Assembly: GCA_934087065.1 (NCBI GenBank)
Contig: CAKOIS010000005.1
Coordinates: 2,789-66,788, forward strand
Length of the DNA: 64,000 nt
Reading direction: 5' to 3'
From: an uncultured Bacilli bacterium
GTDB taxonomy: Bacteria; Bacillota_I; Bacilli_A; RF39; UBA660
The notes under the pieces were generated by a model. The model did not search any database. It was not told the origin of the DNA and worked only from the letters and a program-made list of their open reading frames with translations. Shown here one piece after another: positions 16,611 to 54,417 of this stretch. A program made the position numbers and the translations under genes. Position 1 is the stretch's first letter, and each line of letters starts with the position of its first letter.

Positions 16611-18257
16611 ATGAATAAGAAGAGTATAACAATATTAGTAGTGTGTTTAATAGTGACTGTGTTGTCAGTCAGTTTAGCATACTATAGTGCTAGAATAATA
16701 GGTGATGGGAAAAACGTAAGCGTGAATGCAAAAGAGCTTACAATAAACTTTGACAATAATAACGAAATAGCGAGTGGTATAATTGAACCAGGTTGGAGTA
16801 GTTCTAATACTTTTAGTGTTACTAATAAAAGTAAAACTAACTTTACATATGATATTGTATTAAAGAACTATAAAAATACTACTAAGACTAATGGATACCT
16901 AGTTTATAAAATAACTAGTACAAATGGTTACAATATGACTGAATATAAAGATATGCCAAAAGATGGAGATAATACATATGACCTAGTAATTGCTAGAGGC
17001 ATAACTATTGAACCAGGAAGTAGTAATAAACAAAGTTATACTTTAGAAATAAAATACCTAGATAGCACTGAAGACCAAAGTATAGATATGGGGTCAACTG
17101 TTACAGGTAGTTTATATATAGTAGAAAGTACAACAAACGAAAATAACCCATATACTAAAGGAACATTAGGTTATCAAATAATGGAAGATAACTCAAATAT
17201 TAAAACTAGAACAGATTTTAGTAAAACCTACACAGATGTAAATATTGGAACAATGTATAAAGCACAAGAAGAAAATACTGACGTTTATTATTTTGCAGGA
17301 GATGCAAGAAACAACTGGGTTAAATTTGGAACATGGAAGGAAGATAAAACCATAATAGTTGGATATTACGACACATCAGCTTTTCAGGGCAAACTTTATG
17401 ATACGTTAGAAGAATGTAATACGGCTAGTTCATATAATAAAAATTGTCACTCAGTTACATTGGCTAAAAAAGGAAATGCAATGTACTGGAGAATAATTCG
17501 TACAAATAATGATGGAAGCATAAGACTATTATACGCAGGGACTAATCCGTATGGTAATGAAGCATATGTAAATATAAGTGTATATAATTCTCCATATAAT
17601 AACCCTATGTATGTAGGCTATATGTATGGAACATTAGGCTCTTTGGAAAATAATAGACAAAACACAACAGATAGTTCGGTTAAATCAGCAATTGATAATT
17701 GGTATGTAAATAACATGACATCATATACAAAATATTTAAGCACAAGTGCAGTATATTGTAATGACCGTAGCATACCAAATTCAGACTATAACACTGATAA
17801 AACAGGTTTTAATTATAATTCAGTGTATAGGTTAAATACTAACAAAACTCCAACATATAATTGCGAAAGCGAATATGACGCTTTTAGTGTAGAAAATGCA
17901 AATGCTAAACTAACTTACCCAATAGCCTTAATGACAGCAGACGAAATTGCATATGCAGGTGGTTTACACAACACTCGTTCTGAAACGTGGGTATATAAAA
18001 GTGCTGTACTTAATTCTGACAATGAAAATATTATAAGTGCAACAGGAATTACAAGGTGGTGGACAATGAGCCCTGGAATTTGGGAAGGAACAATATCTAG
18101 AACATATTTTTTAAACACTGTAGCTTGGCCAGGACATTTAAGTACGCAATATATTAATTATGGATATGGTGTAAGACCAGTAATAAGTATAAATAGAAAT
18201 AACATATGGAAAAGTGGAGATGGAAGCGTAGAACATCCATATGAAATTAGTAATTGA
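16611..18257 (+). CDS. secreted paralog family member 1 (548 aa); SipW-cognate-like signal peptide, TasA/camelysin-like N-terminal region
   Basis: N-terminus 'MNKKSITILVVCLIVTVLSVSLAYYSARIIGDGKNVSV...IEPGWSSSNTFSV'. Conserved C-terminal block shared with copy 3 ('WRIIRTN.DGS.RLLY.GT', 'YPIALMTADE', 'VRP'). Confidence 0.6.
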   Translation: MNKKSITILVVCLIVTVLSVSLAYYSARIIGDGKNVSVNAKELTINFDNNNEIASGIIEPGWSSSNTFSVTNKSKTNFTYDIVLKNYKNTTKTNGYLVYKITSTNGYNMTEYKDMPKDGDNTYDLVIARGITIEPGSSNKQSYTLEIKYLDSTEDQSIDMGSTVTGSLYIVESTTNENNPYTKGTLGYQIMEDNSNIKTRTDFSKTYTDVNIGTMYKAQEENTDVYYFAGDARNNWVKFGTWKEDKTIIVGYYDTSAFQGKLYDTLEECNTASSYNKNCHSVTLAKKGNAMYWRIIRTNNDGSIRLLYAGTNPYGNEAYVNISVYNSPYNNPMYVGYMYGTLGSLENNRQNTTDSSVKSAIDNWYVNNMTSYTKYLSTSAVYCNDRSIPNSDYNTDKTGFNYNSVYRLNTNKTPTYNCESEYDAFSVENANAKLTYPIALMTADEIAYAGGLHNTRSETWVYKSAVLNSDNENIISATGITRWWTMSPGIWEGTISRTYFLNTVAWPGHLSTQYINYGYGVRPVISINRNNIWKSGDGSVEHPYEISN

Positions 18258-36393: not shown

Positions 36394-37689
36394 ATGCATA
36401 ACAAACAATTAACATTAGTTGTAGTAAGCCTTTTAGTAGTAGTACTAAGTGTATCACTAGCATGGTTTACAACACAAATATTGGGAAAGGGGAAAGACGT
36501 AAGTGTAAGTAGTGCTAACTTACAAATAATATTTACAGATAGTGACGGTGCTTTATCAGCAAATGATATAGAACCAGGATGGAGTGCAACAAAAACATTC
36601 ACTGTACAAAACAATAGTAAAGAAGAATACAAATACAATATTATTATAAAAGATTTGGTAAACACATTTGTAACAAACGGATACTTACAATACAAGATAA
36701 CTAGTACAAACGATGGATATAATATGACAGAGTATAAGGATATACCAAAATCTAGTACAGCTAAAGATATAATACTTGCTTATAGTGTATCTATACCAAA
36801 GGGAGAAACTCAAACATACACAATAGAATTTAAGTATGCAAATGACGAAAGCAAAGACCAAAGTGTAGATATGAATAAGAAACTGAGTGGAACTTTATTT
36901 ATAACAGAAGGAATAGAAGAACCAAAATCACTTGCAACATTAATACAAACAAATGCTATAAATGAAAATGGATATAGATATGAAGGAACAGACCCAAATA
37001 ACTATATACAAATGGAGAAGACTGATGGCACAACAGAAATATGGAGAATAATAGGGTTATTCCCAGATGGAGAAAATGGAGAAGATGTAATAAGAGTAAG
37101 AAAAGTAGAATATGAGAGTGCTCCTTATGACTCAAATGATACAAACCATTGGCCAAATACAACGCTATATACATATTTAAAAGATACATATTCATTAACA
37201 AATTATAAAAACACAGTAAACTATAAAATGTACTTAGGTGGTGCAAGTAGTATATCAAGTTATACATCACAAGACTTATATGATATGGAAAGAATGTTAA
37301 ATAGTAAAGGAACAGCAGGAAAAACATCACAAAATAGTTATTCTAGCACAACAACATTTACAGGAAGTGTAGGACTAATGTATCCAAGCGATTATGGGTG
37401 CGCTGTACTAGCAAGTGACTGTGCAAGAACAATCACGCCTGAAAAATATACTGAACCAGCAGCATGCCACGATAACAACTGGTTATTCCAAGGTTCAAAT
37501 ATTCGACAATGGTTAATAAGCCCAGGCGTCTCTTTTAATAATTATGCGTTCATTGTCCATGCTAATGGGTATGCCACTCACATGTACATCGTAACTGTTT
37601 CCGTCTCTTATAGCCCAGTTATGGCTCTAAAGTCCGATGTAATCGTAACAGGAAGTGGTACACAAAGTGACCCATATGTAATGAATTAA
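36394..37689 (+). CDS. secreted paralog family member 2 (431 aa)
   Basis: N-terminus 'MHNKQLTLVVVSLLVVVLSVSLAWFTTQILGKGKDVSV...IEPGWSATKTFTV', about 65% identical to copy 3 over the first ~175 aa. Divergent C-terminal half. Confidence 0.6.
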   Translation: MHNKQLTLVVVSLLVVVLSVSLAWFTTQILGKGKDVSVSSANLQIIFTDSDGALSANDIEPGWSATKTFTVQNNSKEEYKYNIIIKDLVNTFVTNGYLQYKITSTNDGYNMTEYKDIPKSSTAKDIILAYSVSIPKGETQTYTIEFKYANDESKDQSVDMNKKLSGTLFITEGIEEPKSLATLIQTNAINENGYRYEGTDPNNYIQMEKTDGTTEIWRIIGLFPDGENGEDVIRVRKVEYESAPYDSNDTNHWPNTTLYTYLKDTYSLTNYKNTVNYKMYLGGASSISSYTSQDLYDMERMLNSKGTAGKTSQNSYSSTTTFTGSVGLMYPSDYGCAVLASDCARTITPEKYTEPAACHDNNWLFQGSNIRQWLISPGVSFNNYAFIVHANGYATHMYIVTVSVSYSPVMALKSDVIVTGSGTQSDPYVMN

Positions 37690-39081: not shown

Positions 39082-39090
39082 GGAGGAGTT

Positions 39091-39615
39091 ATGATAGATA
39101 AGTTTGTACCTGATATGTTTTATCAAAGTATTTATAGAGTTGACTATGAAAAATTAAAAAGTATTGGAATTAAACTAATAATATTTGATTTAGATAATAC
39201 AATTGCAACCTATAGTGAAAGTATTCCTAGAAGTGAAGCTAAAGAATTAATTGATAAACTAAAAGAGATGGGTTTTAATGTAATACTCATGAGTAACTCA
39301 AGTAAATCTAGAGTACTTCCTTTTAGAAATGCTTTAGAAATAGACTCATGCGCTGGTGCTAAAAAGCCTTTAACAAGTGGATACAAAAAAATAATGAAAG
39401 TATATCATCTTGACGCAAATAAAATAGCTTGTATAGGAGACCAATTAATCACTGATATATGGGGTGCTAATAAAATGGGAATGACTAGTATTTTAGTTAA
39501 TCCTATGTCAAAAAAAGATAGAAAGATTACTTATATAAATAGATTTTTTGAAAAGATATTATTTAAAATAATGGATAAAGAAGAATTATTTAAGAAGAGG
39601 AATATGTATGAATAA
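39091..39615 (+). CDS. yqeG: HAD-superfamily phosphatase YqeG-like
   Basis: 'IIFDLDNTI' DxD motif I, 'GDQLITDI' motif IV. Confidence 0.7.
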   Translation: MIDKFVPDMFYQSIYRVDYEKLKSIGIKLIIFDLDNTIATYSESIPRSEAKELIDKLKEMGFNVILMSNSSKSRVLPFRNALEIDSCAGAKKPLTSGYKKIMKVYHLDANKIACIGDQLITDIWGANKMGMTSILVNPMSKKDRKITYINRFFEKILFKIMDKEELFKKRNMYE

Positions 39616-40603: not shown

Positions 40604-40611
40604 AGGTAATT

Positions 40612-42387
40612 ATGGGACTAATAAAAGTAATGGATGAAAACCTATCTAACAAAATTGCAGCTGGGGAAGTTGTAGAAAAAGTTAGCAGTGTTGTAAAAGA
40701 ACTTGTAGAAAATTCACTTGATGCAGGCAGCACTAATATTGAAGTAAGCCTAGTGGATGCTGGAATAAAAGAAATTAAAGTAATAGATAATGGTAAAGGA
40801 ATGGACAAAAGTGACGCAGTACTTGCTTTTACACCACACGCGACTAGTAAGATAAAAAACGAAAATGATTTGTTCTTCATTAATACCCTAGGTTTTAGGG
40901 GAGAAGCTCTTCCTTCAATTGCAAGTGTAAGTGAAGTAGTACTTGATACTAGTAATGGAATAGATAGTACTTTAGTTAATATAAAAGGTGGAACACTTCT
41001 TTCAAAAACAGAAGGCACAATGTCTAAAGGAACTAAGGTAGTTGTAAAAAACTTATTTTATAATACTCCAGCTAGACTTAAATTTTTAAAAAGTTATTAT
41101 ACAGAATTAAATGGAGTAGTTAACTTAATAGAAAAGCTTGCCTTAAGCCACCCTGAAGTTAGCTTTAAACTTAATAGTGATAATAAAGACATGATTAGTA
41201 CAAGTGGAAGTAATGACTTACTTAAAACAATTCACGAAATATACGGATACAACGTAAGTAAAAACATGGTTTATATTGAAGGAAGTAACAGCGACTATGA
41301 CATTAATGGTTATGTTAGTAATATTAATATAGTTAAAAGTACCAAAAAAGATATGATTATCTTAGTAAACGGAAGAATTGTAAATAATAGCTATGTAAAT
41401 AAAGTAATAAAAGACGCATACCATACATACTTAGCTGTAGACAAATACCCTATAGTGGTAATAAACATATTAGTAGACCCAACTATAGTAGACGTTAATA
41501 TCCATCCTACTAAACAGGATATAAAGTTTAGTAAAATGGACACACTAGAAGATATACTATTTAGTACCATAAGAGACAGGTTAATGAATATAAACAATAT
41601 ATTTAAAGCATATGACGAAACAGATAACTATGTTAGTAATGAATACTCTTCTGGTGTAGACTACTCTGTAAACGAAGATTTAGTAGTGAATACTCCTAGT
41701 GTAGAAAAACCTATAATAGAAGAAAATAAAATGAATTTTCTTATGAATGAAGACACTACTGGATATGAAACTGTACTAGATACTAATTTAGAAGAAGAAA
41801 AACCAAGTTTGCTTCACCCAATTGGACTTGCTATGGGAACATACTTGTTTGCAACAGACGAAAGTTGTGTCTACATGATAGATATACATGCTGCTAATGA
41901 AAGAATAAATTATGAAAAACTACTAAATGCTTTAAAAGAAGATACTGTTAGTACTACTAGTATGTTATTTCCTATTACGATAGAATTTACTAAAAATGAA
42001 TATATGATTATAGAAAGAGAAAAAGACTTTATACTTAGTTTAGGCATTAAGTTTAGTGAGTTTGGAGTAAACACAATAAGAGTATATGAGCACCCTACAT
42101 ACTTTAGAGAAGGCTATGAAGAAGAAAGTTTAAGAAGAGTATTTGACCTTATTGTAAGTATGGATAAAAAGTTTGACAGAGTTAAATTTAACGAACAACT
42201 AGCAATAAACTTATCTTGCAAAATGAGTGTAAAAGCAAACACCTTCATTGGGCCACTTGAACAAGAAACACTATTAAAAAGACTATTTAAGTGTGAATTT
42301 CCTTATACTTGTCCTCATGGAAGACCAACTATTATAAAATACACTAAATATGAATTAGAAAAACTATTTAAAAGAGTAAATGCATAA
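40612..42387 (+). CDS. mutL: DNA mismatch repair protein MutL
   Basis: GHKL ATPase 'ELVENSLDAGST', 'GFRGEAL', C-terminal dimerisation domain. No adjacent mutS in this window. Confidence 0.9.
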   Translation: MGLIKVMDENLSNKIAAGEVVEKVSSVVKELVENSLDAGSTNIEVSLVDAGIKEIKVIDNGKGMDKSDAVLAFTPHATSKIKNENDLFFINTLGFRGEALPSIASVSEVVLDTSNGIDSTLVNIKGGTLLSKTEGTMSKGTKVVVKNLFYNTPARLKFLKSYYTELNGVVNLIEKLALSHPEVSFKLNSDNKDMISTSGSNDLLKTIHEIYGYNVSKNMVYIEGSNSDYDINGYVSNINIVKSTKKDMIILVNGRIVNNSYVNKVIKDAYHTYLAVDKYPIVVINILVDPTIVDVNIHPTKQDIKFSKMDTLEDILFSTIRDRLMNINNIFKAYDETDNYVSNEYSSGVDYSVNEDLVVNTPSVEKPIIEENKMNFLMNEDTTGYETVLDTNLEEEKPSLLHPIGLAMGTYLFATDESCVYMIDIHAANERINYEKLLNALKEDTVSTTSMLFPITIEFTKNEYMIIEREKDFILSLGIKFSEFGVNTIRVYEHPTYFREGYEEESLRRVFDLIVSMDKKFDRVKFNEQLAINLSCKMSVKANTFIGPLEQETLLKRLFKCEFPYTCPHGRPTIIKYTKYELEKLFKRVNA

Positions 42388-42448
42388 AAAGAGTAATGTA
42401 TAAAATAAAGTACTTGATTTAATTAGTAAAATTTGTTATAATTAAATT

Positions 42449-42577
42449 GTCTTAAATGACATATAATATTAATGGACAAACAAAAAGAGTAGTACCAAGC
42501 TTTGGGATGTTAGGTGTTCACTCAGTCCAATAATTGACGTAGGAACACCGTCTCAGTAGTTGATACGGTGTTCTTTT
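42449..42577 (+). ncRNA. candidate small RNA (orphan promoter-to-terminator unit, ~130 nt)
   Basis: Promoter TTGATT-17-TGtTATAAT at 42414-42442; two mutually exclusive hairpins sharing 'gaacacc'; terminator aacaccgt/acggtgtt + TTTT at 42543-42577. No plus-strand CDS follows for 1 kb. Confidence 0.3.
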
Positions 42578-43478
42578 ACATTTTATGTTTTTCGGTTTCT
42601 GTGGTTAAGTGTTTAATTACATCTAATTGCATTTGTTTTCCATATAAAAGTTCTTCACGAGACAAATTCAAACTATCAGCTATATCATAAATTAACCATT
42701 CATTATTGCATTCACTTTTTCTTACAATTTCTAAAAATACTTGTACAGCTTGAGCTCTTGACAGATTAAATTTCTTAGCTATAGTTTCCATACATCCTCT
42801 TACAAATAAATATGAAGATATATAAGATAATCTAAATGAACAAGATTTATAACTTGAAATCTTCTCTATACCATATGTATTATCATTTTCTGAAACAAGT
42901 ATTTCTTCTGCACTTAGAATTTGTTCTTCACTTAAATTTAATAATATGTTTTTATGCTCGGTGAAAACTTCTTCTAAATTTAACGCATATAATGGTAATG
43001 CTTCAGCAAACCCTTCGCTAATAATTAAATCTTTACTAAAAAACTGACTATGTACTATATGTGATAACTCATGAATTTCATTTTCAATTTTAGAAATTCC
43101 TATTTCTTTAAGTTCCTTGTTTTCTAACATATTTTGACTTAGCCCATAAGCCCATGAAAAGCCATCTAAGTCATAACACATTACTGGCTTTCCTCCGCCT
43201 TTTCCATTATCAAATTTTTTTGGAATATTTAAAAGTTCTCCATAATTTTCATCTGGTACAATATAAACATATAATATAGGGTGTGCATTTGCTGGATATT
43301 TAATTCCAAGAGTATTTATCATTTCTAAACATTTACTCATGTTATTTAAATACTCATTATAGCTACCATTATCATATTTAATTGCTAATTCTTTAGATAA
43401 TCTAACTTTTATTGCACTACTAAAAACTCTTAGTTCTGAATTCTTAATATATTCTCTCATTTTATTTTTTTCGTACAT
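42576..43478 (-). CDS. hypothetical HExxH metallopeptidase-like protein (ImmA/IrrE-like motif 'HELSH')
   Basis: GGAGG SD precedes the internal ATG at 43478 (MYEKNK...). 'IENEIHELSHIVHSQ'. Confidence 0.4.
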   Translation of the reverse strand: MYEKNKMREYIKNSELRVFSSAIKVRLSKELAIKYDNGSYNEYLNNMSKCLEMINTLGIKYPANAHPILYVYIVPDENYGELLNIPKKFDNGKGGGKPVMCYDLDGFSWAYGLSQNMLENKELKEIGISKIENEIHELSHIVHSQFFSKDLIISEGFAEALPLYALNLEEVFTEHKNILLNLSEEQILSAEEILVSENDNTYGIEKISSYKSCSFRLSYISSYLFVRGCMETIAKKFNLSRAQAVQVFLEIVRKSECNNEWLIYDIADSLNLSREELLYGKQMQLDVIKHLTTETEKHKM

Positions 43479-43611
43479 TTTCTTTACCTCCATGATTAAA
43501 TTATACTTTGTTTTATAAGGAGGGTCAAGTGAAAAATACTCCTAAACACTTGAAAATATAAGACTTTTCGTATATAATTTAAATATAATTATTTAATTAG
43601 GTGGTGTTATC

Positions 43612-44622
43612 ATGTTTAATTTATTTAAAAAGAAGAAAGTAAGTGGACCGGTAAAAGATGAAGCATATTATAGAAGTTATGACGCTTACGAAGATGAAGA
43701 AGATATTTACTTTGAAAAAAGAAATAATCAAAAAGCAAGAGTATTTTTAGTTATGGGACCAACTTGTAGTGGTAAAACTAAAGTGAGTATTGAAATAGCT
43801 AAGAAGTTTAACGCTGAAATAATAAATGCAGACAAAGAACAAATGTACAAGCATCTTAATATAGGTACTGCTAAAGTAACTAAAGAAGAAATGAAAGGTA
43901 TAAAACATCATTTGATAGATTTTCTTGATTTAAGAAGTAACTATACAGTAAGAGATTATCAAAGAGATGGTAGAAAGATACTAGACGAGTTATTAGACCA
44001 AGGAAAAAATGTTGTTGTAGTAGGTGGCTCAGGACTATATATAAAAGCACTTTTATTTGACTATAGATTTCCTGAAGAAGACCCAGAATTTTATCCTGAA
44101 TGTGAAAATTTTGATAATGGATACTTAAAAACGAAAGCAACACAATTTGAACCTTTTACTGAAGTACACGTTAATAATAGACGTAGACTTGAAAGAATAT
44201 TTACTCGTGTATTTGCATCTAAAGAGCGTATTCATAATAACTGCGGTAAAAATCTTCCTTTATATGATATTGACTATGTAGAATTATGTCCAGAAAGAGA
44301 AGAGTTATATGATAGAATTAATAAAAGAGTAGACCAGATGTTTAAGAGTGGTCTAGTAGAAGAAGTAAAAAAATATAAAAGATATCCAAAACTTAAAACA
44401 ATAATTGGATATAAAGAAACACTACAGTATTTAAAAAATGAAATAACTTTAGAAGAATGCAAAACACTAATAAAAAGAAATACTAGACATTATGCAAAAA
44501 GACAAATGACATGGTTTAGAACACAATTTATGGAAAGTGCATCCTATAGTGTTGACTACAAACATTTTAATTACTCAATAGAAAGGATCCTAAGATGTTT
44601 AGGACCCCTCAACAAAAAATGA
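43612..44622 (+). CDS. miaA: tRNA dimethylallyltransferase
   Basis: P-loop 'VMGPTCSGKT' after a ~45-aa N-terminal extension. 336 aa. Confidence 0.8.
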   Translation: MFNLFKKKKVSGPVKDEAYYRSYDAYEDEEDIYFEKRNNQKARVFLVMGPTCSGKTKVSIEIAKKFNAEIINADKEQMYKHLNIGTAKVTKEEMKGIKHHLIDFLDLRSNYTVRDYQRDGRKILDELLDQGKNVVVVGGSGLYIKALLFDYRFPEEDPEFYPECENFDNGYLKTKATQFEPFTEVHVNNRRRLERIFTRVFASKERIHNNCGKNLPLYDIDYVELCPEREELYDRINKRVDQMFKSGLVEEVKKYKRYPKLKTIIGYKETLQYLKNEITLEECKTLIKRNTRHYAKRQMTWFRTQFMESASYSVDYKHFNYSIERILRCLGPLNKK

Positions 44623-45486
44623 GTTATCAAAGTTATGCTCTTTAGTATCTAAACTAAGGAGTTTTTCTTTTGTTATTAAAAAGTAATTATCTCTATATCT
44701 ATTATTATCTATGTCATCCCAAGTAAGATCAAGATGTAACCAATTATTATCTAAATAAACTAAATTCCACACATGATTAGTACTGCTTATTTTTAAATTA
44801 GGAATATTAAATTTATCAAGAAATAATGCCATCGCGTCAGAGTACCCACTACAAACTGCATGACCTAAAATTAACGAACCATAAGCACTAGTAGTATCTA
44901 AATTATCACTTTCACTATCATATACAGTATTACTTAAAATATAATTATGTACTTTCTCAATTATTTCTCTATCACTTAAATTTTCAACATTTAACTCAGT
45001 AATAACTTTATTTACCTTATTATCTAAAACTTTGATTTTCTCGTCATCATATTTAGGCGTAACGCTTATTTTAATTTCTCTTGTACTAGAAATAGTAGTC
45101 TTAATATTTTCAAAACTATTAAATGGGCTAATATAATTATTAATATTACTCATAAGTGTATTGTCATTACCAACAGTTTCAACATCATCCATACACGTTT
45201 TATATTCCTTAGGACAATAGAAAGTAAATTCTTTCCAACCATTATTTAACACATTAAAATAAATATTAATAATATCATCTTTAGTATAAGGAATGTAATT
45301 AATGTTATAGTTAAAATTAACATAATTATATTCTCTCTTAAAGTTATTTGCTTCTTTTATAGTAACTTTTTCATTACTAACAAGTAAATCAGTAAAAAAT
45401 TCGCTTATAGTATCTATATTTCTATAAACTAATAGTATAACTAAAATTAATAAAATTGTATATATTATATCTCTTATCTTTTTCAT
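44599..45486 (-). CDS. transglutaminase-like cysteine peptidase-fold protein, N-terminal membrane anchor
   Basis: Cys-His-Asp spacing 'GHAVCSGYS ... NHVWNLVY ... LDLTWDD'. Confidence 0.5.
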   Translation of the reverse strand: MKKIRDIIYTILLILVILLVYRNIDTISEFFTDLLVSNEKVTIKEANNFKREYNYVNFNYNINYIPYTKDDIINIYFNVLNNGWKEFTFYCPKEYKTCMDDVETVGNDNTLMSNINNYISPFNSFENIKTTISSTREIKISVTPKYDDEKIKVLDNKVNKVITELNVENLSDREIIEKVHNYILSNTVYDSESDNLDTTSAYGSLILGHAVCSGYSDAMALFLDKFNIPNLKISSTNHVWNLVYLDNNWLHLDLTWDDIDNNRYRDNYFLITKEKLLSLDTKEHNFDNSFFVEGS

Positions 45487-45597
45487 AATTAAATTATATA
45501 TTAAATTTACAAGTATAGCAAGTATAAAAATAAAAAGTGTAAAACTTCTTTACTTTAAAGATAAATAAATATATAATTAAAGTGTGAGGTAATAAGT

Positions 45598-46293
45598 ATG
45601 AATGAGGTATTAAGTAAAAATAATTATAGGAAGTTATTAGTGGAAAATGAAGTAACCGTTTTTAATAATGAAGAAGAAGTTACTTTTAATGCTGATAATA
45701 AAGAGAAAGAAGAAGTAGTTGATTTCTTTCTAAGAAACCATAGAGTTAATGTTATGAAAGTAGGTTTAAAAGACTATACTTTTACATCTGCTAGTGCTTG
45801 TATAGATAATTATAATAAAAACTTAGTTAATCTTATAAGTGATGCTAGTATGAAGTTAGGTATTAGTACAAACATATCATTAAAGATAAAAGCTATTAAA
45901 AAGTTTTATAACGATAGATTATATAGTTTATATAAGAGCAATGCTAACAAAGTAAGAATAGTAATGGGTTATAACACATCAAAATATATTACTTTATTTG
46001 ATAAACTATTAATAGAAGTACTAAATAACAAATTAGATTTATCTTTTATATATGAATATATTTCTAGCTTAACAAAAGGAGATAAATTAGAAATCAAATA
46101 TAAAGAAATATATTGGTTTCCACTTGAACCAGATAGAACTAGAGGGTACAGTAACATGCCTTACATAACAGGTTTAACAAAAGTAGTAGAGTTTGATAAC
46201 ATATTACTACCTTATATGGAAAGACTAGTTAACGAATATAATAGTGAATTAAATAAATTTAATACGTTACAATTTAAACTAAAAGAATTTTAA
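45598..46293 (+). CDS. hypothetical protein (231 aa)
   Basis: ORF with GAGGT SD. Confidence 0.4.
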   Translation: MNEVLSKNNYRKLLVENEVTVFNNEEEVTFNADNKEKEEVVDFFLRNHRVNVMKVGLKDYTFTSASACIDNYNKNLVNLISDASMKLGISTNISLKIKAIKKFYNDRLYSLYKSNANKVRIVMGYNTSKYITLFDKLLIEVLNNKLDLSFIYEYISSLTKGDKLEIKYKEIYWFPLEPDRTRGYSNMPYITGLTKVVEFDNILLPYMERLVNEYNSELNKFNTLQFKLKEF

Positions 46294-46307
46294 AAGGGTG
46301 TGAATTT

Positions 46308-46967
46308 ATGAATATACTAATGGATTTTGTATTTTTTAGTATTATTGGTTTTATAAGTGAAGTTATTTACTGCAGCTTAAACAAAAGAAAAAGTGGTAAA
46401 GCTCTTTATGGTCCATGGTGTCCATTATATGGTTTAGGTGGTTTATTAATTATAAGTGTAGTTAGTCATGTGCCTGAAAATATGTTCATCATATATTTAG
46501 TAAGCGTACTAGTATCAAGCTTTACTGAATACTTAGTAAGTGTTGTATTAGAAATGATTTTTGATATGAAATGGTGGGACTATAGTTTTAAAAAGTTTAA
46601 CTTAAATGGTAGAATTTGCTTAGAAAACTCACTATTATTCGGTGTCCTAGGTATTCTAATATTTTACTTCTATTTACCACTTAAAGTTTATATGATAAGT
46701 ATATGTGACCCACTTTTACTAAAGATTATAGTGTATTTACTATTTACAGCAATGTGTATTGATGGGGTTATAACTATAATTGAAGCATTTGAGGTTAAAT
46801 ATAGATATCAACTTATAAAGAAAATTGGACTTAATAACAAAGATAAACTAAAGAGCAAACTTGCTAAATTAAAAAGTTCATTTAACTTTAAAAGACTTAT
46901 CTATGAATTTGATTTTGATAATAAAGAGAAGATTAAGTTTTTAAAGAAATTTTATAAGAAGAAATAA
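46308..46967 (+). CDS. small integral membrane protein (4-5 TM)
   Basis: Hydrophobic segments; 'FVFFSIIGFISEVIYCS' N-terminus. Confidence 0.4.
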   Translation: MNILMDFVFFSIIGFISEVIYCSLNKRKSGKALYGPWCPLYGLGGLLIISVVSHVPENMFIIYLVSVLVSSFTEYLVSVVLEMIFDMKWWDYSFKKFNLNGRICLENSLLFGVLGILIFYFYLPLKVYMISICDPLLLKIIVYLLFTAMCIDGVITIIEAFEVKYRYQLIKKIGLNNKDKLKSKLAKLKSSFNFKRLIYEFDFDNKEKIKFLKKFYKKK

Positions 46968-47061
46968 TAAAAAACTAAGTTTATACATAATTGAATGAAC
47001 TTAGTAACTTAAAATTCTAAGCATTGTGACTTATAAAATTTATCAATATTTAAAATTGTAC

Positions 47062-47090
47062 TTGAAAAATAGTACTTTTTTTGATAAGAT
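47062..47090 (+). promoter_or_regulatory. promoter TTGAAA-17-TGaTAAGAT for leader / paralog copy 3
   Basis: Same spacing to the 'aaagatagg' box as copy 1. Confidence 0.45.
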
Positions 47091-47097
47091 TATCTTG

Positions 47098-47272
47098 TAA
47101 TAAAGATAGGAAGTGAAGTACATGAAAATTAACTCTTTGGTACAAAATAAAGTACAAAATGGGGGGGGGTTATTTAAATAGTATAAATAACTATAGTTTT
47201 TCATGTGCAATTAAATGGATAGAATAACTCTACCCATTTTTTCGTGTCTTAAAAAGAAAGGAGAACATTAAT
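47098..47272 (+). promoter_or_regulatory. conserved leader, copy 3: leader ORF 47122-47181 (MKINSLVQNKVQNGGGLFK*) with G9 tract 47161-47169; terminator 47215-47243
   Basis: Hairpin atggatag/ctacccat + T6 identical to copy 1. In the G8 frame the ORF would read ...GGGYLNSINNYSFSCAIKWIE*, similar to the copy-1 leader peptide, and would end inside the hairpin. Confidence 0.55.
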
Positions 47273-48754
47273 ATGCAAAAGAAAAAATTAACACTTGTAA
47301 TAGTAAGCTTACTTGTAGTAGTACTAAGTGTATCACTAGCTTACTTTACAGCACAAATAATAGGAAAGGGTAAAAATGTAAGTGTAACAAGTGCTAACTT
47401 ACAAATAGTATTTACAGATAGTGATGGAGCTTTAACAGAAACTGGTATAGAACCAGGGTGGCAAAAAACTAAAACTTTTACTATTAAAAATGATACTAAG
47501 ACAGAATACAAGTATAATATAGTAATAAAAGACTTGTTAAATACTTTTGTAACTAATGGATACTTACAATATAAGATAACTAGTACAAATAATGGATATA
47601 ATATGACTGAGTTTAAAGATATTCCAAAGTCAAGTGCACCTAAAGATAAAATACTAGCTTATAGTGTTAGTATTCCAGTAGGAGTAACACAAAGTTATAC
47701 TATTGAATTTAAGTATGCAAACGATGAAAGTGTAGACCAAAGTGATGATATGGGTAAGAAACTAAGTGGAACACTATTTATAACTGAAGGAACAGAAGAT
47801 CCAAACAAAACACTTTTAACTCAATTATTTGCAGACAAATCAACAGTATTAACAAGAACAGACTTTAGTACAGTATTAACAACAGATAATACAAAAACAT
47901 TATATACGGGAACAGAGAATGGAACAACAGTATACTATTTTGCAGGGAATGCAACAGATAACTGGGTAAAGTTTGGAAAGAATGCAAGTAATGAAGACTT
48001 ATACTGGAGAATAATAAGAACAAACTCAGATGGTAGTGTAAGACTTTTATACCATGGAACAAGTACAACAGCAACAGACGCATATATAGGGACATCAGCA
48101 TTTAATAGTAGTAATAATGATATAGCATATGTAAGCTATATGTATGGAAATTTAGGAAGTGTTGCAAATGCTAGAGAAAATACAACTAACAGTACAATAA
48201 AAACAATAATAGATAACTGGTATAAAGATAATTTGAATACAAATTATGGTAAATACCTAAGTACAACAGCAGTATACTGTAACGATAGAAGTACATCAGA
48301 TAATGCATCCTTTGGAGCACGTACAAGACTACAAACAAATAAAACACCAACATATGACTGTTCAGTAGCAGAAGACAAATTCACAGTAGACACAAGTACA
48401 GGAAATGGGAAACTAACATACCCAATAGCATTAATGACAGCAGACGAAGTAAGTTTTGCAGGTGGAGTATGGATAGTAAATGCACCTACATGGTATTATA
48501 AAAATAGTGCAAACGAAAGCTCTACAGACTCAACCTGGTGGTGGTTGTTGTCTCCTCGCGGTTGGTATGACAGCGTCGCTTACGTGTTCTACGTGTCCGG
48601 TTCGTCCAAACCTGGCTACTTGTACGACAACAGCGTCAACTACACCACCCGTGTGCGTCCAGCCCTATCACTAAAATCTTGTGTTAAATATGCAAATGGA
48701 GATGGCTCAGCAAGCGCACCATACACAATAAAAGAAACTTCAAGTGGGTGCTAA
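47273..48754 (+). CDS. secreted paralog family member 3 (493 aa)
   Basis: N-terminus 'MQKKKLTLVIVSLLVVVLSVSLAYFTAQIIGKGKNVSV'. Central/C-terminal block homologous to copy 1. GC3-rich patch at ~48553-48666. Confidence 0.6.
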   Translation: MQKKKLTLVIVSLLVVVLSVSLAYFTAQIIGKGKNVSVTSANLQIVFTDSDGALTETGIEPGWQKTKTFTIKNDTKTEYKYNIVIKDLLNTFVTNGYLQYKITSTNNGYNMTEFKDIPKSSAPKDKILAYSVSIPVGVTQSYTIEFKYANDESVDQSDDMGKKLSGTLFITEGTEDPNKTLLTQLFADKSTVLTRTDFSTVLTTDNTKTLYTGTENGTTVYYFAGNATDNWVKFGKNASNEDLYWRIIRTNSDGSVRLLYHGTSTTATDAYIGTSAFNSSNNDIAYVSYMYGNLGSVANARENTTNSTIKTIIDNWYKDNLNTNYGKYLSTTAVYCNDRSTSDNASFGARTRLQTNKTPTYDCSVAEDKFTVDTSTGNGKLTYPIALMTADEVSFAGGVWIVNAPTWYYKNSANESSTDSTWWWLLSPRGWYDSVAYVFYVSGSSKPGYLYDNSVNYTTRVRPALSLKSCVKYANGDGSASAPYTIKETSSGC

Positions 48755-48781
48755 ACTGTGTCTCTTGGGATCCCATGCTAG

Positions 48782-48806
48782 ATTAGGAATTTAGACAGTT
48801 CCTAAT
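48782..48806. terminator. bidirectional hairpin between convergent genes
   Basis: attaggaa/ttcctaat stem then T6. Confidence 0.45.
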
Positions 48807-50090
48807 CTTTTTTATGTGCATGAATGTACTTATTATAAGTGTAACTATTATTGAAAGTATTAGAGAGTACATTCCTATTTTTAGAAGGGAAAGTAATGTT
48901 AATAAGACTAGTTTTGTTATGGAAGTAATTAGAGTGATATTCATTTCTTCTTTAGACATATCTAGTGCTTGAAGAGCGTTTGCAAGTGGTGTATTTATGA
49001 AGTAAAGTAAGAAGAAAGGAGCTAAAACTTTGATGTAGTTAGAACCTAGTGTTGTTTTATAAATTAGATTAAGTAAGTATTCAGGTATAGCAAAAATAAT
49101 TCCTGTTGAGAAAGCTCCAATTGCTAAAGATAGTCCTGTTATTTGGTATATTCTTTTTTTACATTGTATGATGTTTTTAACTGAGTAGTTTTTAGCAAGT
49201 TCTGGAATTAGTGAAGTAGATATGCTCATTGTAAAAAATTGTGGAATTAAGAGTAGTGCTAAAGCGTACCCGTTAATGATACCATATTCTCTAACTATAA
49301 AGTCATTTGAATATCCTACAAAGTTTAGTATGTTTATTAGTACTATTGGTTCTAGAAAGTGAGCTAGACTTCCTACAATTTTACTACTAGTACTAGGTAC
49401 ACTTATATTCATGATGTCTCTTATGTATTCTTTTTTGGGTTTTATATCTTCTTTTGATAATGTAATTCCCTTAGGTAAACCTAAGAGCATTACTATGATA
49501 CTTGATGTTTCACTAATCATATTTACTAAGATTATCACTGAAATAGTGAGTACTAAACTTTTTTCTATTAGTATAGGTATTAAGAAAATAAGTATAGCTA
49601 TTCTAACTATTTGTTCAACTATATTAGAAAGAATATATACTCCCATTCTTTGTTTACCCCAGTAGTAACCTTTTATTATTGAAGACATTCCTATAAATGG
49701 AAGAGTAAAACCAATAGATAGAAGTGGAATGTATAGTCTAGCGTCTTTTAAAAAGTAGACTGCTAGTGGTTTTGCAATTAAAAAGATTATTAGAAGTGTA
49801 ATTAGGTTTAATAGTAGTGATATTGGTATAATAGAAAACACCGCACTTTTAGAACTTTTCTCTCTTACATTTATAACTTTACTAATGCTTGCAGGGTAAC
49901 TGAATGTCGCAATTGTGATAAAAAGACTAAAAGTAGGCGTGATAAGTGAGTATAAGCCAATTCCTTCAGTACCTATTTGTCTAGTAATGATTATTCTCAA
50001 AACAAAACCAAGTAACTTTGATAGAAAGCCACCAGTAAGGAGTATTAGTGTTCCCATAAAAAAGTTGTTTTTTAGTAATTTTTTAATCAT
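48783..50090 (-). CDS. MOP-superfamily polysaccharide/lipid-II flippase (SpoVB/MurJ/Wzx-like)
   Basis: 435 aa, about 12 TM. N-terminus 'GTLILLTGGFLSKLLGFVLRIIITRQIGTEGIGLYSL' typical of SpoVB/MurJ. Confidence 0.6.
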   Translation of the reverse strand: MIKKLLKNNFFMGTLILLTGGFLSKLLGFVLRIIITRQIGTEGIGLYSLITPTFSLFITIATFSYPASISKVINVREKSSKSAVFSIIPISLLLNLITLLIIFLIAKPLAVYFLKDARLYIPLLSIGFTLPFIGMSSIIKGYYWGKQRMGVYILSNIVEQIVRIAILIFLIPILIEKSLVLTISVIILVNMISETSSIIVMLLGLPKGITLSKEDIKPKKEYIRDIMNISVPSTSSKIVGSLAHFLEPIVLINILNFVGYSNDFIVREYGIINGYALALLLIPQFFTMSISTSLIPELAKNYSVKNIIQCKKRIYQITGLSLAIGAFSTGIIFAIPEYLLNLIYKTTLGSNYIKVLAPFFLLYFINTPLANALQALDMSKEEMNITLITSITKLVLLTLLSLLKIGMYSLILSIIVTLIISTFMHIKKIRNCLNS

Positions 50091-50156
50091 ACTTAAGTAT
50101 ATTCTAAATTAATTTAAAACTTTACTTTTAATGAGTAAACGTGTTATAATTTAGAC

Positions 50157-50861
50157 ATGCAACAGTATTTTAGTAAAAAAAGAGAAAATGATATTTTGTA
50201 TTTGGATAGTTGTGACTTTCATCACATTAAGAACGTTATGAGAATTAAAAGTCATGACAGTGTTATTGTGGGCTACGATGGCATTCTTTATATGTGTTTG
50301 ATGAACGAGGACTTAACAAGCGTGACTATTAAAAGTGTGTATAAGGAAAGTGACGATGCAAAAGTAATAGTCTATATGCCAGTGTTAAGTGATGAAAAGA
50401 TGTCTTTTATAATTGAAAAAGGAACAGAAATGGGTGTTACTAAATTTGTGCCTGTACAGTACGAAAGATGTAAATTTGTGATTAATAAAGATAAGGTAAG
50501 TAAGAAGTTAGAAAGGTATAATAAAATAGCTAAAGAAGCAAGTGAGCAAGCAAGAAGAACACGTGTTACTGAAGTGTCTGATATTATTAAGGTTGACACT
50601 ATTGATAAGATAGATGGTGTAAATATAGTGTGTTCACTTGACAAAGATAATGTAAAAAGAATAAAAGAGGTGTTAAATGATAAGACTATTTGTGATACAA
50701 TTAGTATAGCATTTGGACCTGAAGGAGGACTTACAAGTAAAGAAGAAAGTGTACTTGTAAATAAAGGTTTCATAAAGACTTCGTTAGGTAGTAATGTGCT
50801 TAGAACAGAAACTGTAGTAATCGCGGTGTGTTCAATAATAAACTATGTAAAGGGTGAATGA
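50157..50861 (+). CDS. rsmE: 16S rRNA (uracil1498-N3)-methyltransferase
   Basis: 'MQQYF...HHIKNVMRIK' N-terminal PUA-like domain, SPOUT C-terminal domain. Adjacent to mtaB as in the Bacillus yqeU-yqeV pair. Confidence 0.7.
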   Translation: MQQYFSKKRENDILYLDSCDFHHIKNVMRIKSHDSVIVGYDGILYMCLMNEDLTSVTIKSVYKESDDAKVIVYMPVLSDEKMSFIIEKGTEMGVTKFVPVQYERCKFVINKDKVSKKLERYNKIAKEASEQARRTRVTEVSDIIKVDTIDKIDGVNIVCSLDKDNVKRIKEVLNDKTICDTISIAFGPEGGLTSKEESVLVNKGFIKTSLGSNVLRTETVVIAVCSIINYVKGE

Positions 50862-50864
50862 GTT

Positions 50865-51482
50865 ATGAAAAATGGAATAGATAATTTTATAGAGTTATTA
50901 GTTAAAGGAGACTTCTTTTTGATATTCTTAATAGTAATGATGATAGTGGTTACGTGTATTATTGCTTACTTAATCAAATTACAAATGAGCGAGAAGTATT
51001 ATGATGAAGATGAAGAAGATGATGAAGATAGTAACTTTGTGGAAAAATATATTCCATTAGAAGACAAAGAACCTGTTAAAAAGGTAGATCAAAAGAAGTT
51101 TGATTTTGAAAATAATACCATAGAAAGCTCTATTAAGAATTATGAAAGTGACCAAGAAGAAATGGCTATTATAAGTGCTGATGAGTTAGACAATAGAATT
51201 AGTAATATGAAAGAAACTGGTGAGTTTGACCGTCATTTAGAACAAATAGATGAGTATGAAGCTGAACAGGAAAATAAAGCTATCATTAGTTATGAAGAAC
51301 TACTTAAAAGAGCATCAACTAATACAGTAACTTATGAGAGTACAGAAAACTTAGGCGGTATTAAAGTTGGAAAAGTTGATACTTCTAAAATAGATATAAC
51401 AAGTGAAGAAAATAATACTCCATATTATAAAGAAGAAGCATTTTTAAGTGCTTTAAAGGAGTTTAGGGGGAGTTTACAATGA
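50865..51482 (+). CDS. hypothetical acidic protein with one N-terminal TM helix
   Basis: Inserted between rsmE and mtaB. D/E-rich. Confidence 0.4.
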   Translation: MKNGIDNFIELLVKGDFFLIFLIVMMIVVTCIIAYLIKLQMSEKYYDEDEEDDEDSNFVEKYIPLEDKEPVKKVDQKKFDFENNTIESSIKNYESDQEEMAIISADELDNRISNMKETGEFDRHLEQIDEYEAEQENKAIISYEELLKRASTNTVTYESTENLGGIKVGKVDTSKIDITSEENNTPYYKEEAFLSALKEFRGSLQ

Positions 51483-52735
51483 CATTTTGTATTAAGACAC
51501 TTGGTTGCAAAGTTAATACATATGAAAGTGAATTAATCCATAACCTTTTCATTAGAAAAGGTTATGTTTATTCTAAAGATAATGCTGATGTGTACGTAAT
51601 TAATACTTGCACAGTAACAAATATGAGTGATAGAAAATCTAGACAAATTATAAACACTACAAGAAGGGATAATAAAAATGCAATAATAGTGGTGTGTGGT
51701 TGTTTTAGTCAAAACGCTTTTAATTCAGGAAGGTTAGACGAAATAGATGCAGATATTATTATAGGAAATAAAGATAAAAGTAAAATAGTAGAGTATGTAG
51801 AAGATTACATCAAGAATAAAAGTAAGACTACTAAATTTTATAACATGGACGAAGTAGAATTTGAAAATATGGAACTAGATAGTATGGAAGGAAGAACACG
51901 TGCGTTTGTTAAAATTGAAGATGGGTGTGAGAACTTCTGTACTTACTGTATTATTCCTTATGTAAGGGGTAAAGTTAGAAGTAAAAGTCATGAAATGGTA
52001 ATAGAAGAAGTGACTAATTTAGTTAATAAGGGTTACAAAGAAGTAGTGTTAACTGGAATACATACTGGGCATTACGTGGATGAAGATTATAACTTTGAAC
52101 ATTTACTTAGAGATTTAGTTAATATTAGTGGACTACTTAGACTTAGAATATCTTCCATTGAGATAAATGAGTTAACTGATGGAGTACTTGACATCTTTAG
52201 TAAAAGTGATGTACTTGTACCACACTTACATATACCACTACAAAGTGGGAGTGACCATATTTTAAAAGAAATGAATAGAAAGTATGATAAGGAATATTTT
52301 ATAAATAGGATAGAATATATAAAGAGTATCAAAAAAAACGTTAGTATCACAACTGACGTAATCACTGGTTTTCCAGGAGAAACTGATATGGAACATTTAG
52401 AAAGTATGGAAACTATAAAGAATATAGGCTTTACTAAAGTACATGTTTTTCCATATAGTGACAGATACAATACAGTTGCAAGTAAGATGCCCAACAAGGT
52501 AGATGGTAATGTTAAAAAAACGAGAGTGAAAGATTTACTTGTGTTAAGTGATGAATTAGAAAGTAGTTTTAATTCTAAGTTTTATGGTAGAGTATTGCCG
52601 GTGTTAATTGAAGAAGAAAAAGATGGATACTTTTACGGACACACTGCAAACTTTATAAGAGTTAAAGTAAGTGGTAACTACAAACATAATGAAATATATA
52701 ATATAAAACTTAGTGAAGAAAATATAGTTAGATAA
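51479..52735 (+). CDS. mtaB: radical-SAM tRNA methylthiotransferase (MtaB-like)
   Basis: N-terminal MTTase Cys triad 'LGCKVN...CTVT...CGC', radical SAM 'CENFCTYC'. Confidence 0.75.
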   Translation: MTFCIKTLGCKVNTYESELIHNLFIRKGYVYSKDNADVYVINTCTVTNMSDRKSRQIINTTRRDNKNAIIVVCGCFSQNAFNSGRLDEIDADIIIGNKDKSKIVEYVEDYIKNKSKTTKFYNMDEVEFENMELDSMEGRTRAFVKIEDGCENFCTYCIIPYVRGKVRSKSHEMVIEEVTNLVNKGYKEVVLTGIHTGHYVDEDYNFEHLLRDLVNISGLLRLRISSIEINELTDGVLDIFSKSDVLVPHLHIPLQSGSDHILKEMNRKYDKEYFINRIEYIKSIKKNVSITTDVITGFPGETDMEHLESMETIKNIGFTKVHVFPYSDRYNTVASKMPNKVDGNVKKTRVKDLLVLSDELESSFNSKFYGRVLPVLIEEEKDGYFYGHTANFIRVKVSGNYKHNEIYNIKLSEENIVR

Positions 52736-52788
52736 GTCTTGTAAAAGGCTTTTCTTTTTGCTACAATATTTATTACTTGGGTGGTTTT

Positions 52789-53868
52789 ATGGAAAAGTAT
52801 TTGATTAATATTTTAAAAGATAAAGATTTTGACGAAATCGTAATAGGAGACGCGTGTATTTATAAAGAAGGAGAATATTTTATAGTAAGTGCATCTTACA
52901 GTGAATACAAGTTATCTAAAAAATTATACAGATATTTAAAATTAAATGGGTTAAACACTAAAGTGCGTATAGCTGACAATAAAACTCCCAATAAGAAAAA
53001 GATAGATAAATTATACCAAGGCATTCCAAAAAAAGACATTAGTTTTTTGTTTTATGCTGCTGATGGAATATTTAGTATATATGACTATGAAGGCTTAACT
53101 GAAGTTCAAAATTTAGTTAATTATTATAAATCGTTTATAGGTAAAGATATGTCAGCTCTTGAAAGATTATTAATGGCTTATGATATTGTGAAGAGCATTG
53201 TTTATGACTTTGAAGACGTTGACAAAGTGTATGGTGGTAATATTAAATATTACATGGATACCGGACGTATTGCCTGTGCTGGTTTTTCTACTTTACTTTC
53301 TATGATACTTGATAAAAATAGTAAAGACTTAATTGTTAGATGTGAAGGAATTTATGGACGTACTGAAAAAGACGATGGTCACGCTAGAAGTGTCGTTATT
53401 ATAGATGATAATAAATATAATTTTAAAGGACTGTTTGTAATGGACGCAACATTTGACTCAAATTTGGTAGATAATAATATTCTTATAAAGAGGGAAGATA
53501 ATTATAATTATTTTTTATTAAATGTGAAACAAGTAAATCGTGAATATTATAATTTTTTAGATAGTGAATTTTTTTCTAAAGTTAAATCTTATATGAAACT
53601 AAATAGTAAAAAGAATAAGTACAACCTTACTAATACTTTTGATGAAATGTTTGATGTAAGATTAAATAGAAATGAAATGGTTGAGCTTACTAAGAATTTT
53701 AGAAATCAAGAGACGATATTGAAGGCACTTGTAAGAGTGAGAAAACAAGAAGGTTATTCTGAATTTGAAACAATAAGAAGTTTACATAGATATTTGAGAG
53801 AAAATATTCCTAATACTAAAAAGATATTTGCTAGAAAAGTAAGAGATATTGTGAAAGAAAATTATTAA
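52789..53868 (+). CDS. hypothetical protein, possible transglutaminase-like fold
   Basis: Cys/His/Asp in 'RIACAGFS ... GHARSVVII ... FVMDATFD'. Confidence 0.35.
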   Translation: MEKYLINILKDKDFDEIVIGDACIYKEGEYFIVSASYSEYKLSKKLYRYLKLNGLNTKVRIADNKTPNKKKIDKLYQGIPKKDISFLFYAADGIFSIYDYEGLTEVQNLVNYYKSFIGKDMSALERLLMAYDIVKSIVYDFEDVDKVYGGNIKYYMDTGRIACAGFSTLLSMILDKNSKDLIVRCEGIYGRTEKDDGHARSVVIIDDNKYNFKGLFVMDATFDSNLVDNNILIKREDNYNYFLLNVKQVNREYYNFLDSEFFSKVKSYMKLNSKKNKYNLTNTFDEMFDVRLNRNEMVELTKNFRNQETILKALVRVRKQEGYSEFETIRSLHRYLRENIPNTKKIFARKVRDIVKENY

Positions 53869-53921
53869 ATAAGTGATGAAATGCTGTTTTAAGTTTAAAT
53901 TAAAGACTTATTGATTAAAAT

Positions 53922-54306
53922 AACTTGAAGTTTCAATTTGAAACTTCAAGTTTTGTAATTGTGCAAAAGTCGCATTATAATTTACAATGTGAATGTTAAA
54001 GAACTAGTTATGAAATATGCTAAAATATATTCAAACTTGAAGTCACAAATTGTGACTTCAAGTTGTAATAAAGCCAAGATACAAAGCATGACAATTATTT
54101 GAAAAAGCGCATAAAACTGTAAGTTTTAAAGATTTTTTTTAAATAAAAAAGTTCAAACTTGAAGTCACAATTTGTGACTTCAAGTTTGATAACATAATAT
54201 AAAAAATATAACAGTTATTAAAAAAGCAACGTAAAATCGTAAGCTTTAATAGAATTTTTAAACCGAAAAAGTGAAAACTTGAAGTTTCAAATTGAAACTT
54301 CAAGTT
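53922..54306. repeat. tandem array of four 31-33-bp perfect palindromes (AAACTTGAAGT[ttcaa|cacaa]N[ttgaa|ttgtg]ACTTCAAGTTT) at ~112-122-bp periodicity; inter-palindrome segments related
   Basis: Palindromes at 53922-53952, 54034-54064, 54156-54186, 54276-54306. Each is a perfect inverted repeat around one central nt. Spacers share 'aaaag(c/t)gcaTaaaa..gtaag.tttaa'. Confidence 0.85.
53953..53981 (+). promoter_or_regulatory. promoter TTGTAA-17-TATAAT abutting palindrome 1
   Basis: -35 starts at the nt after the palindrome. Confidence 0.4.
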
Positions 54307-54344
54307 TGTTACTTAAAAAATTACGAAAAAAGACAAACAATTAG

Positions 54345-54373
54345 TTGACAAACGAACGAGCATTTGTTAAAAT
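54345..54373 (+). promoter_or_regulatory. promoter TTGACA-17-TGtTAAAAT for the ORF6N-domain gene
   Basis: Consensus. Confidence 0.55.
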
Positions 54374-54417
54374 AAAAGTGTAGTTACAAAATAAATAAAG
54401 AAAAGGAGGTTTTGATA

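Follow-up and report, generated by a model that had tools for sequence, protein, structure and literature searches.

A GC-rich codon island in a DUF6273 gene of an uncultured Bacilli bacterium: a very probable variable region of diversity-generating retroelement origin

In diversity-generating retroelements (DGRs), a dedicated reverse transcriptase (RT), acting together with Avd, makes cDNA from an RNA copy of a template repeat (TR). Bases are misincorporated opposite template adenines, and the cDNA then replaces the homologous variable region (VR) in the 3'-terminal part of the target gene. Here, we describe an abrupt GC-rich codon island in a gene termed copy 3 (47273..48754, plus strand; 493 amino acids), the third of the related genes in a 64,000-nt stretch of contig CAKOIS010000005.1 from an uncultured Bacilli bacterium of the RF39 lineage (the whole stretch is referred to as the window). 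The island is very probably the VR of a DGR target gene; the mechanism is already known, and copy 3 is a further DGR target of the established type.

Mtd of Bordetella phage BPP-1 and TvpA of Treponema denticola share several features with the copy 3 family: the VR is located at the 3' end of the gene, AAC and AAT template codons are set among invariant scaffold residues, differences from the TR are adenine specific, Avd is accompanied by an RT with an [I/L]GxxxSQ motif, and the VR and TR end in a GC-rich element. However, there is no detectable sequence similarity to Mtd or TvpA, the C-type-lectin fold of copy 3 is putative, copy 3 has no DGR cassette of its own, and its host is a gut bacterium of ~29% GC, so that the VR stands out as a GC island. 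Two partial family proteins from one MAG carry the NCBI label 'Firmicutes bacterium'.

In the DUF6273 DGR targets of gut phages and prophages (tentaclins and the Faecalibacterium prophage targets), the VR is placed at the C terminus of DUF6273, and template adenines are limited to the sites meant to vary within an A-free scaffold (PMC10743442, PMC11792537). The copy 3 family has the same Pfam domain, the VR at its C-terminal end, and an origin in the human gut. In contrast to the phage genes, the genes described here belong to the chromosome, with housekeeping genes (obg, mutL, miaA, and rpoBC) as neighbors, form a family of at least five paralogues per genome, and encode a signal/anchor helix, a beta-sandwich, and DUF6273 without Ig or Fn3 repeats; in addition, relatives of their RT are absent from the viral contig collection.

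Remote cellular DGR targets, such as those of T. denticola and of lineage-4 DGRs, resemble copy 3 in having a VR paralogue hundreds of kilobases from the RT, a non-phage context, and several paralogous targets per genome; 73 non-adjacent targets have been described, some more than 100 kb away and seven of them in Treponema (PMC5758913). Remote targets in the literature are recognized by differences from a resident TR that are confined to A, whereas the VR of copy 3 carries seven non-A differences and is invariant among strains. Its membership as a DGR-derived VR is supported, but as a current remote target it falls short in both A-only differences and variability, and copy 3 is more aptly called a former or orphaned target.

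Composition and limits of the island

The original prediction, made from the letters of the window alone, had described an abrupt patch of ~58% GC at 48553-48666, and the composition bears this out. The patch has a GC content of 0.57 (A20 C38 G27 T29), and 48552-48665 is the richest in GC among all 114-nt stretches of the window (0.579), ~5 standard deviations above the mean (0.288; standard deviation, 0.057). The second GC peak of the window (20480-20593, 0.518) corresponds to a tRNA-Ser(GCU) gene (20504-20594, minus strand). In 20-codon windows along copy 3, the fraction of codons with G or C at the third position (GC3) rises from 0.05-0.25 to 0.75-0.80 in the patch and is 0.15 after it. The boundaries are as sharp as had been claimed and match the ends of the homology to TRs (48542 to ~48660-48668); the start proposed earlier, 48553, is 11 nt inside the TR-homologous tract.

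As a control for amino-acid composition, only four-fold-degenerate codons were counted. In 48542-48664, 1 of 22 such codons ends in A (A3), compared with 143 of 189 in the remainder of copy 3 (Fisher p = 5e-11), and 13 of 22 end in G or C, compared with 9 of 189 elsewhere in the gene (p = 9e-10); the T-ending codons of the tract account for 8 of 22. Among all codons of the patch, ~70% end in G or C and the others mostly in T, so the switch to G/C-ending codons that had been proposed applies to the former but not to the rest: the rule behind the island is that A is avoided, not that G/C is preferred. The adenines remaining in the VR number 7, 11, and 3 at codon positions 1, 2, and 3, and those of the TR number 19, 16, and 1.

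Local selection on amino acids, translation speed, or mRNA structure in the coding sequence could in principle shape such a composition, and the loop abounds in residues with partly NNY codons (Tyr, Ser, Gly, Asn, and Asp). We find this explanation scarcely credible: the effect holds when only four-fold-degenerate codons are counted, 48542-48668 does not fold more stably as RNA than shuffled sequences (z = +0.82; 159 of 200 shuffles fold as well), and the tract has no Rfam match. The last two results reject RNA structure as the explanation of the island.

The VR, which constitutes the GC-rich island, spans 48542..48668 on the plus strand, as delimited by gapless alignment to the TRs of loci L050, L053-L061, and L078. 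Its diversified codons (48557..48652, plus strand; amino acids 429-460, RGWYDSVAYVFYVSGSSKPGYLYDNSVNYTTR) are NNC/NNT codons that correspond to AAC/AAT in the TR and are interspersed among A-free scaffold codons. The 3' end of the VR (48653..48668, plus strand) comprises the GC-rich element GTGCGTCC, common to all TRs, followed by AGCCCTAT.., which is diverged from the TR and from the consensus of the adjacent VRs (GGCA[A/G]TTTCTCT). Beyond the stop codon, homology to the DGR-linked loci ends within 48755..48770 (plus strand), according to the alignment of the downstream regions and the list of open reading frames (ORFs); a convergent flippase-like gene ends at 48783, 3' of copy 3.

Template repeats and the copy 3 product

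Complete cassettes are found in relatives. In loci L050 and L051, a copy 3 homologue (P0057, 82% protein identity) lies directly upstream of the TR, Avd, and RT, and the order is target P0057, a structured spacer, the TR, two small ORFs, Avd, and RT. The TR of L050 (11711-11837) is a 127-nt repeat of the target's own 3' tract with 36 adenines, and the RT (371 amino acids, RVT_1) has the motifs IGNYSSQ and YLDD. Avd is a 114-amino-acid ORF overlapping the RT start in L050 and L078; its match to NF033474 (DivGenRetAVD; E = 3.4e-6) is below the curated cut-off, and the match to Pfam bAvd is weak or faint. The same cassette occurs in human-gut metagenome contigs carrying relatives of the RT. The core mismatches between cognate TR and VR fall exclusively at TR adenines in L054 (17/17), L058 (16/16), and L061 (19/19). 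Over 3806 nt, L058 and L061 share 99.76% identity, and eight of their nine differences are in the VR, all at TR-A sites; this concentration indicates that the DGR family is active in nature.

Two further observations concern these loci. Between L050 and L051, strains that are otherwise 98.7% identical, the avd region (12931-13308) has ~50 differences in 380 nt, and the adjacent target gene and TR are identical. Besides the RT at L050 13233-14348, a second RT family, 65% identical (protein P0389, 374 amino acids), is widespread in gut assemblies, and the genome of the L050 DGR may carry two DGR-type RTs.

The best-matching TR for the VR of copy 3 is that of L054, from another lineage. Over the 118-nt core, 21 mismatches are observed, 17 of them at TR adenines (hypergeometric p = 5e-8); 80 of 84 non-A positions are identical, and 17 of the 34 TR adenines are altered in copy 3 (eight to T, six to G, and three to C). 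The original prediction had favored a targeted diversification hotspot. As to origin this stands, with 17 of 21 mismatches at TR adenines and with Avd and RT beside paralogues, but the tract is not hypervariable at this locus.

A tract acquired from a GC-richer organism by ordinary recombination or horizontal transfer, with no reverse transcription, would likewise have sharp compositional boundaries; moreover, recombination has made mosaics of the strains (0-9% divergence per 500 nt), and the N-terminal part of copy 3 contains paralogue-like substitutions. However, the tract matches the TRs of AT-rich relatives (~27-29% GC where measured, in L052 and L070), its differences from them are adenine specific, its adenines are almost only at codon positions 1 and 2, and the same codons are hypervariable across the family. 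Such a transfer is therefore very improbable, and gene conversion from a GC-richer donor, which had been put forward earlier, survives only if a TR, copied by way of cDNA, is counted as the donor.

On a DGR origin, the composition of the island is accounted for as follows. A TR confines its adenines to the sites that are meant to vary, in AAC/AAT codons with A at positions 1 and 2, and its scaffold codons are all A-free because any A would be mutagenised. In a host with A at the end of 76% of four-fold codons, a tract without A means codons ending in G, C, or T. Replacement of half of the adenines then raises the GC content from 0.48 in the TR to 0.55 in the 127-nt VR and 0.57-0.58 in the patch, and the sharp edges of the island are the edges of TR homology. 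The template of the copy 3 VR would have been an older or foreign form of the TR, with no rewriting afterwards; the VR may represent a fixed snapshot that arose through gene duplication or a past trans-homing event. Both this route to the copy 3 locus and the present inactivity of the VR are what we infer.

The window itself contains neither component of a cassette: scanning both strands without gaps revealed nothing above background and no repeat of the tract that could serve as a TR, and no ORF containing YxDD, as expected of an RT, is present. Downstream of copy 3, the homology to DGR-linked loci ends ~16 nt past the stop codon, and spacer, TR, Avd, and RT are absent; no TR or RT is found over 6.7 kb on the upstream side of the window and 9.7 kb on its downstream side either (same-strain contigs, 99.99% identical). 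A pattern in which every position was either the VR base or A retrieved only poly-A or poly-T runs among viral contigs. The genome-contig collection had no match to a semi-exact predicted TR or to a 32-mer of the L050 TR; these lineages, or their TRs in the form scanned, are not in that collection. The search for a template and an RT that had been suggested at the outset was thus successful in relatives and in a same-species contig, which have both, but not in the window or its flanks.

The product of copy 3 is predicted to be a secreted or surface protein of a multi-paralogue family. The gene was assigned to the DGR-target family by its ORF, its DUF6273 match, and its homology to the DGR-adjacent target in L050 (86.7% nucleotide identity). 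From N to C terminus, the protein comprises a hydrophobic helix, a beta-sandwich domain, and DUF6273, a C-type-lectin-like domain. Residues 408-469 match Pfam DUF6273 (PF19789) at profile positions 110-172 of 172 (23.6 bits; cut-off, 23.5), the domain is matched by 30 of 50 family members (best E = 2.6e-7), and the VR maps onto its C-terminal end in copy 3. An AlphaFold model is confident solely for residues 42-172, with pLDDT values of 80 to 89 in the beta-sandwich, and a PDB profile search with copy 3 returned chance matches only, with no PDB sequence match. In residues 1-172 (47273-47788), the N-terminal helix is followed by ..SLAYFTAQ.. and then the beta-sandwich, to which the Foldseek matches are confined; these are weak and include the TasA fibre (8aur_A, E = 7e-4, TM 0.32); the family might be secreted or fibre forming, which we note as a lead only.

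A search of 5.8 billion proteins yielded thousands of copy 3 homologues, of which 117 were aligned. The patch is their most variable stretch, flanked by the invariant WWLLSP and VRP..SLKS, as had been claimed for the segment between conserved anchors. Entropies of 2 to 2.9 bits are found at positions 429, 430, 432-435, 437, 440, 442, 446, 449, 451-454, 456, 457, and 459, compared with 0 bits at scaffold positions, and the (near-)invariant scaffold consists of W431, A436, V438, V441, G443, P447, G448, V455, and V461-R-P. Judged from these alignments, hypervariable codons between invariant residues present the classic pattern of a DGR variable region.

Present state of the copy 3 variable region

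Sequence comparison suggests that the VR of copy 3 was DGR-written, but not from the present resident TR, and that it is now probably a fixed, static allele. The 702-kb contig of the same species (ENA ERZ4559376, Hadza NODE_4_length_701950) carries both an orthologue of copy 3 (P0122) and an RT (P0438). P0122, at 204,501-205,982, differs from copy 3 by two amino acids, has an identical VR, and shows the synteny of the window (locus L081, 98.9% nucleotide identity); the RT lies at ~495.3-496.4 kb, ~290 kb away. The cassette around this RT (L078) looks intact, with an 824-amino-acid target paralogue, VR (8053-8179), TR (8475-8601), Avd, and RT (RVT_1). Its TR differs from the adjacent VR at 19 positions, all adenines, with no non-A mismatch, whereas it differs from the VR of copy 3 at 24 positions, 17 at A and 7 at non-A. 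The non-A mismatches include lineage markers of the L078 TR (two ACG codons and GGC), which are present in the adjacent VR and absent from copy 3, and relative to any TR seen, the VR of copy 3 has a minimum of three non-A differences (G28A, C/T68A, and G108C). In the 13 nt after GTGCGTCC, it has five mismatches to the resident TR, compared with two for the cognate adjacent VR. The differences of the copy 3 VR from the resident TR are thus not confined to adenines; the DGR-derived pattern is nonetheless clear.

The VR is also constant among strains. Ten distinct protein variants, with as many as 25 differences at other residues, all have the allele RGWYDSVAYVFYVSGSSKPGYLYDNSVNYTTR, and the VR DNA is identical in the window, L001, L081, L082, and L083 (97.5-99.9% identity). 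Alleles of other remote paralogues are likewise fixed within their 90% clusters. Hypervariability across strains, which had been proposed as a check, is therefore not seen in copy 3, although it is evident among close relatives in L058/L061. An unchanged segment in orthologues had been taken to point to a single ancient transfer if no donor-like copies existed; the segment is indeed unchanged, but donor-like copies, the TRs, do exist.

Alternatively, copy 3 may be a currently active remote target that is rewritten in trans by the DGR ~290 kb away or by an unseen RT-less TR module, with the strains sharing one successful allele. Remote DGR targets are documented (PMC5758913), and several observations agree with rewriting and weigh against a static allele. 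The window's own strain has an RT-less TR module upstream of the window, although of a different TR type, and a further TR that matches the VR of copy 3 cleanly is possible in its genome. A3 avoidance is intact, and a tract so barely ameliorated (A3 1/22) is not ancient. The remote copies in L052 and L069 mismatch TRs at A in 12 of 13 and 19 of 20 positions; this near-perfect non-A match implies that trans-targeting probably operates in the genus. As for the 3' homing signal, a putative initiation of mutagenic homing (IMH) element, GTGCGTCC is retained in copy 3 and the following 13 nt are diverged, but the L069 remote copy, whose VR is 19/20 A specific, shares this 3' flank variant. The DGR-adjacent target of L050/L051 is also identical between strains while the flanks differ by 1.3%. 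Finally, the C-type-lectin fold is putative, as the AlphaFold pLDDT is below 50 for residues 247-468 (shallow alignment).

These observations take away from two arguments for inactivity. VR identity among strains is weak evidence alone, because the DGR-adjacent target of L050/L051 is identical too and the strains are recombination mosaics; it does not prove inactivity. A decayed IMH does not prove it either, given the flank shared with L069. Still, the seven non-A mismatches to the resident TR (none in the adjacent VR) and the minimum of three to any TR seen, the lack of VR variation in 10 protein variants and five DNA loci, the diverged 3' flank, and the absence of a TR from the window and ~16 kb of flanks stand against current rewriting, which we consider rather unlikely. 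A fixed allele remains the reading that we prefer.

The exchange of sequence between strains is apparent in the comparison of window positions 37263-54889 with L001, in which 0 to 46 differences per 500 nt (0-9%) alternate in a mosaic, with copy 3 in an identical block; this mosaic divergence indicates frequent recombination, as judged from the alignment. In P0002, P0003, and P0127, 5 of 10, 9 of 25, and 4 of 5 N-terminal differences from copy 3, respectively, are the copy-2 residue, a hint of possible exchange between paralogues in the N-terminal part.

Paralogues, leaders, and an RT-less template module

Two other family members, copies 1 and 2, were found in the window by tblastn. Copy 2 (36394-37689, 431 amino acids) has a VR-homologous loop at 37510..37626 (plus strand) with a weaker footprint, in agreement with the milder island that had been noted there: A3 is 3/19 compared with 110/145 elsewhere (p = 5e-7), and GC3 is 8/19 compared with 8/145 (p = 5e-5). 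A 67%-identical orthologue of copy 2 in another species (L070) has A3 values of 2/18 and 113/161. The loop is variable in 41 orthologues, with indels and non-NNC residues, and no template for it was found in all fetched loci; the best TR-like candidate has 22 non-A mismatches, which is noise. Most simply, the copy 2 loop may be an older VR or a VR from a different TR. Copy 1 (16611-18257, 548 amino acids) serves as a negative control. Its VR-homologous loop (18057..18182, plus strand) has ordinary host codon usage, with neither A3 (12/18 compared with 95/177) nor GC3 (1/18 compared with 22/177) significant, and the reported lack of an island in this copy is correct.

A conserved leader precedes each paralogue (47102-47272, 36223-36393, and ~16440-16610). 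It contains a short ORF (e.g., MKINSLVQNKVQNGGG..) with a G8-G9 run, followed by a hairpin and T-run (GGATAGA..TCTACCCATTTTTT) ~60 nt before the start codon. Neither the DGR-adjacent gene of L050 nor the remote copy of L069 has such a leader. For copy 3, all five strains checked have a G run of 9 nt, as do four other loci, with other species among them, and no variation in its length is evident in the assemblies. Phase-variation machinery upstream had been given as the ground for a diversification hotspot; the G9 tract, constant in five strains, has no part in the GC island, and this argument falls away.

Further family members lie outside the window. A fourth paralogue (L075 3326-4855) is located 1.9-3.4 kb upstream of the window start, and a fifth (L071 20506-20843) starts ~9.7 kb downstream of the window. 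The fourth has a VR-like tract of a different type (GC, 0.61; A3 0/20 compared with 132/189, p = 4e-10). Downstream of it, and ~1.3-1.9 kb upstream of window position 1, is the RT-less DGR RNA module (L075 4856-5440; same strain, 99.99% identical), which consists of a conserved structured spacer, a second type of TR (TR2, ..NWNGSNANVWNWNSDNANLNNNNVNNTN..), ~240 nt of post-TR sequence, and a terminator. No Avd or RT follows the module, and the next gene is adh_short. Compared by eye, the VR of the fourth paralogue differs from TR2 mostly at adenines from GCG onward, with indels in the 5' part. With the TR excluded, the module is highly similar to the RT-linked modules in L078 and L050, and for this reason one RT may serve several TR modules.

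A TR2-like element was also observed in another species (L052 11700-11935). This AAC-rich element is downstream of a target with a TR1-type VR, still reads through a target-like C-terminal tail (..VVRPSVSLLSCNLISRGNGSPENPYVVYTGSGVCE*), and is not followed by an RT.

A distributed DGR might be envisaged, in which one Avd-RT pair serves several TR-RNA modules at separate loci, at least one of them RT-less and of another TR type, each downstream of a paralogue, and VRs are episodically written and then frozen. The cell would thereby have a panel of fixed, differently tuned lectin-like surface proteins in place of one protein that varies continuously, with copy 3 as an archived variant and the weaker island of copy 2 as an older one. 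We put this forward tentatively, as an arrangement that is conceivable but doubtful. Elsewhere in the window, a ribosomal protein L10 leader (RF00557, 48.8 bits; 26815-26924, plus strand) is located upstream of rplJ.

A striking compositional anomaly is accounted for here by a known mechanism, and it provides a sequence-only signature of VRs in AT-rich genomes, namely, a 3'-terminal gene tract of ~120 nt without A at third codon positions, which is usable even when the TR and RT are hundreds of kilobases away or on another contig. A VR can outlast its relation to a resident TR; surveys of remote targets that accept A-only differences will overlook orphaned VRs of this kind, and those based on hypervariability scores will wrongly assume that genes with VRs diversify. 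This family, which has many paralogues with a fixed VR each, a conserved leader, and one or more RT-less TR modules, is a natural case for studying how DGR diversity becomes fixed.

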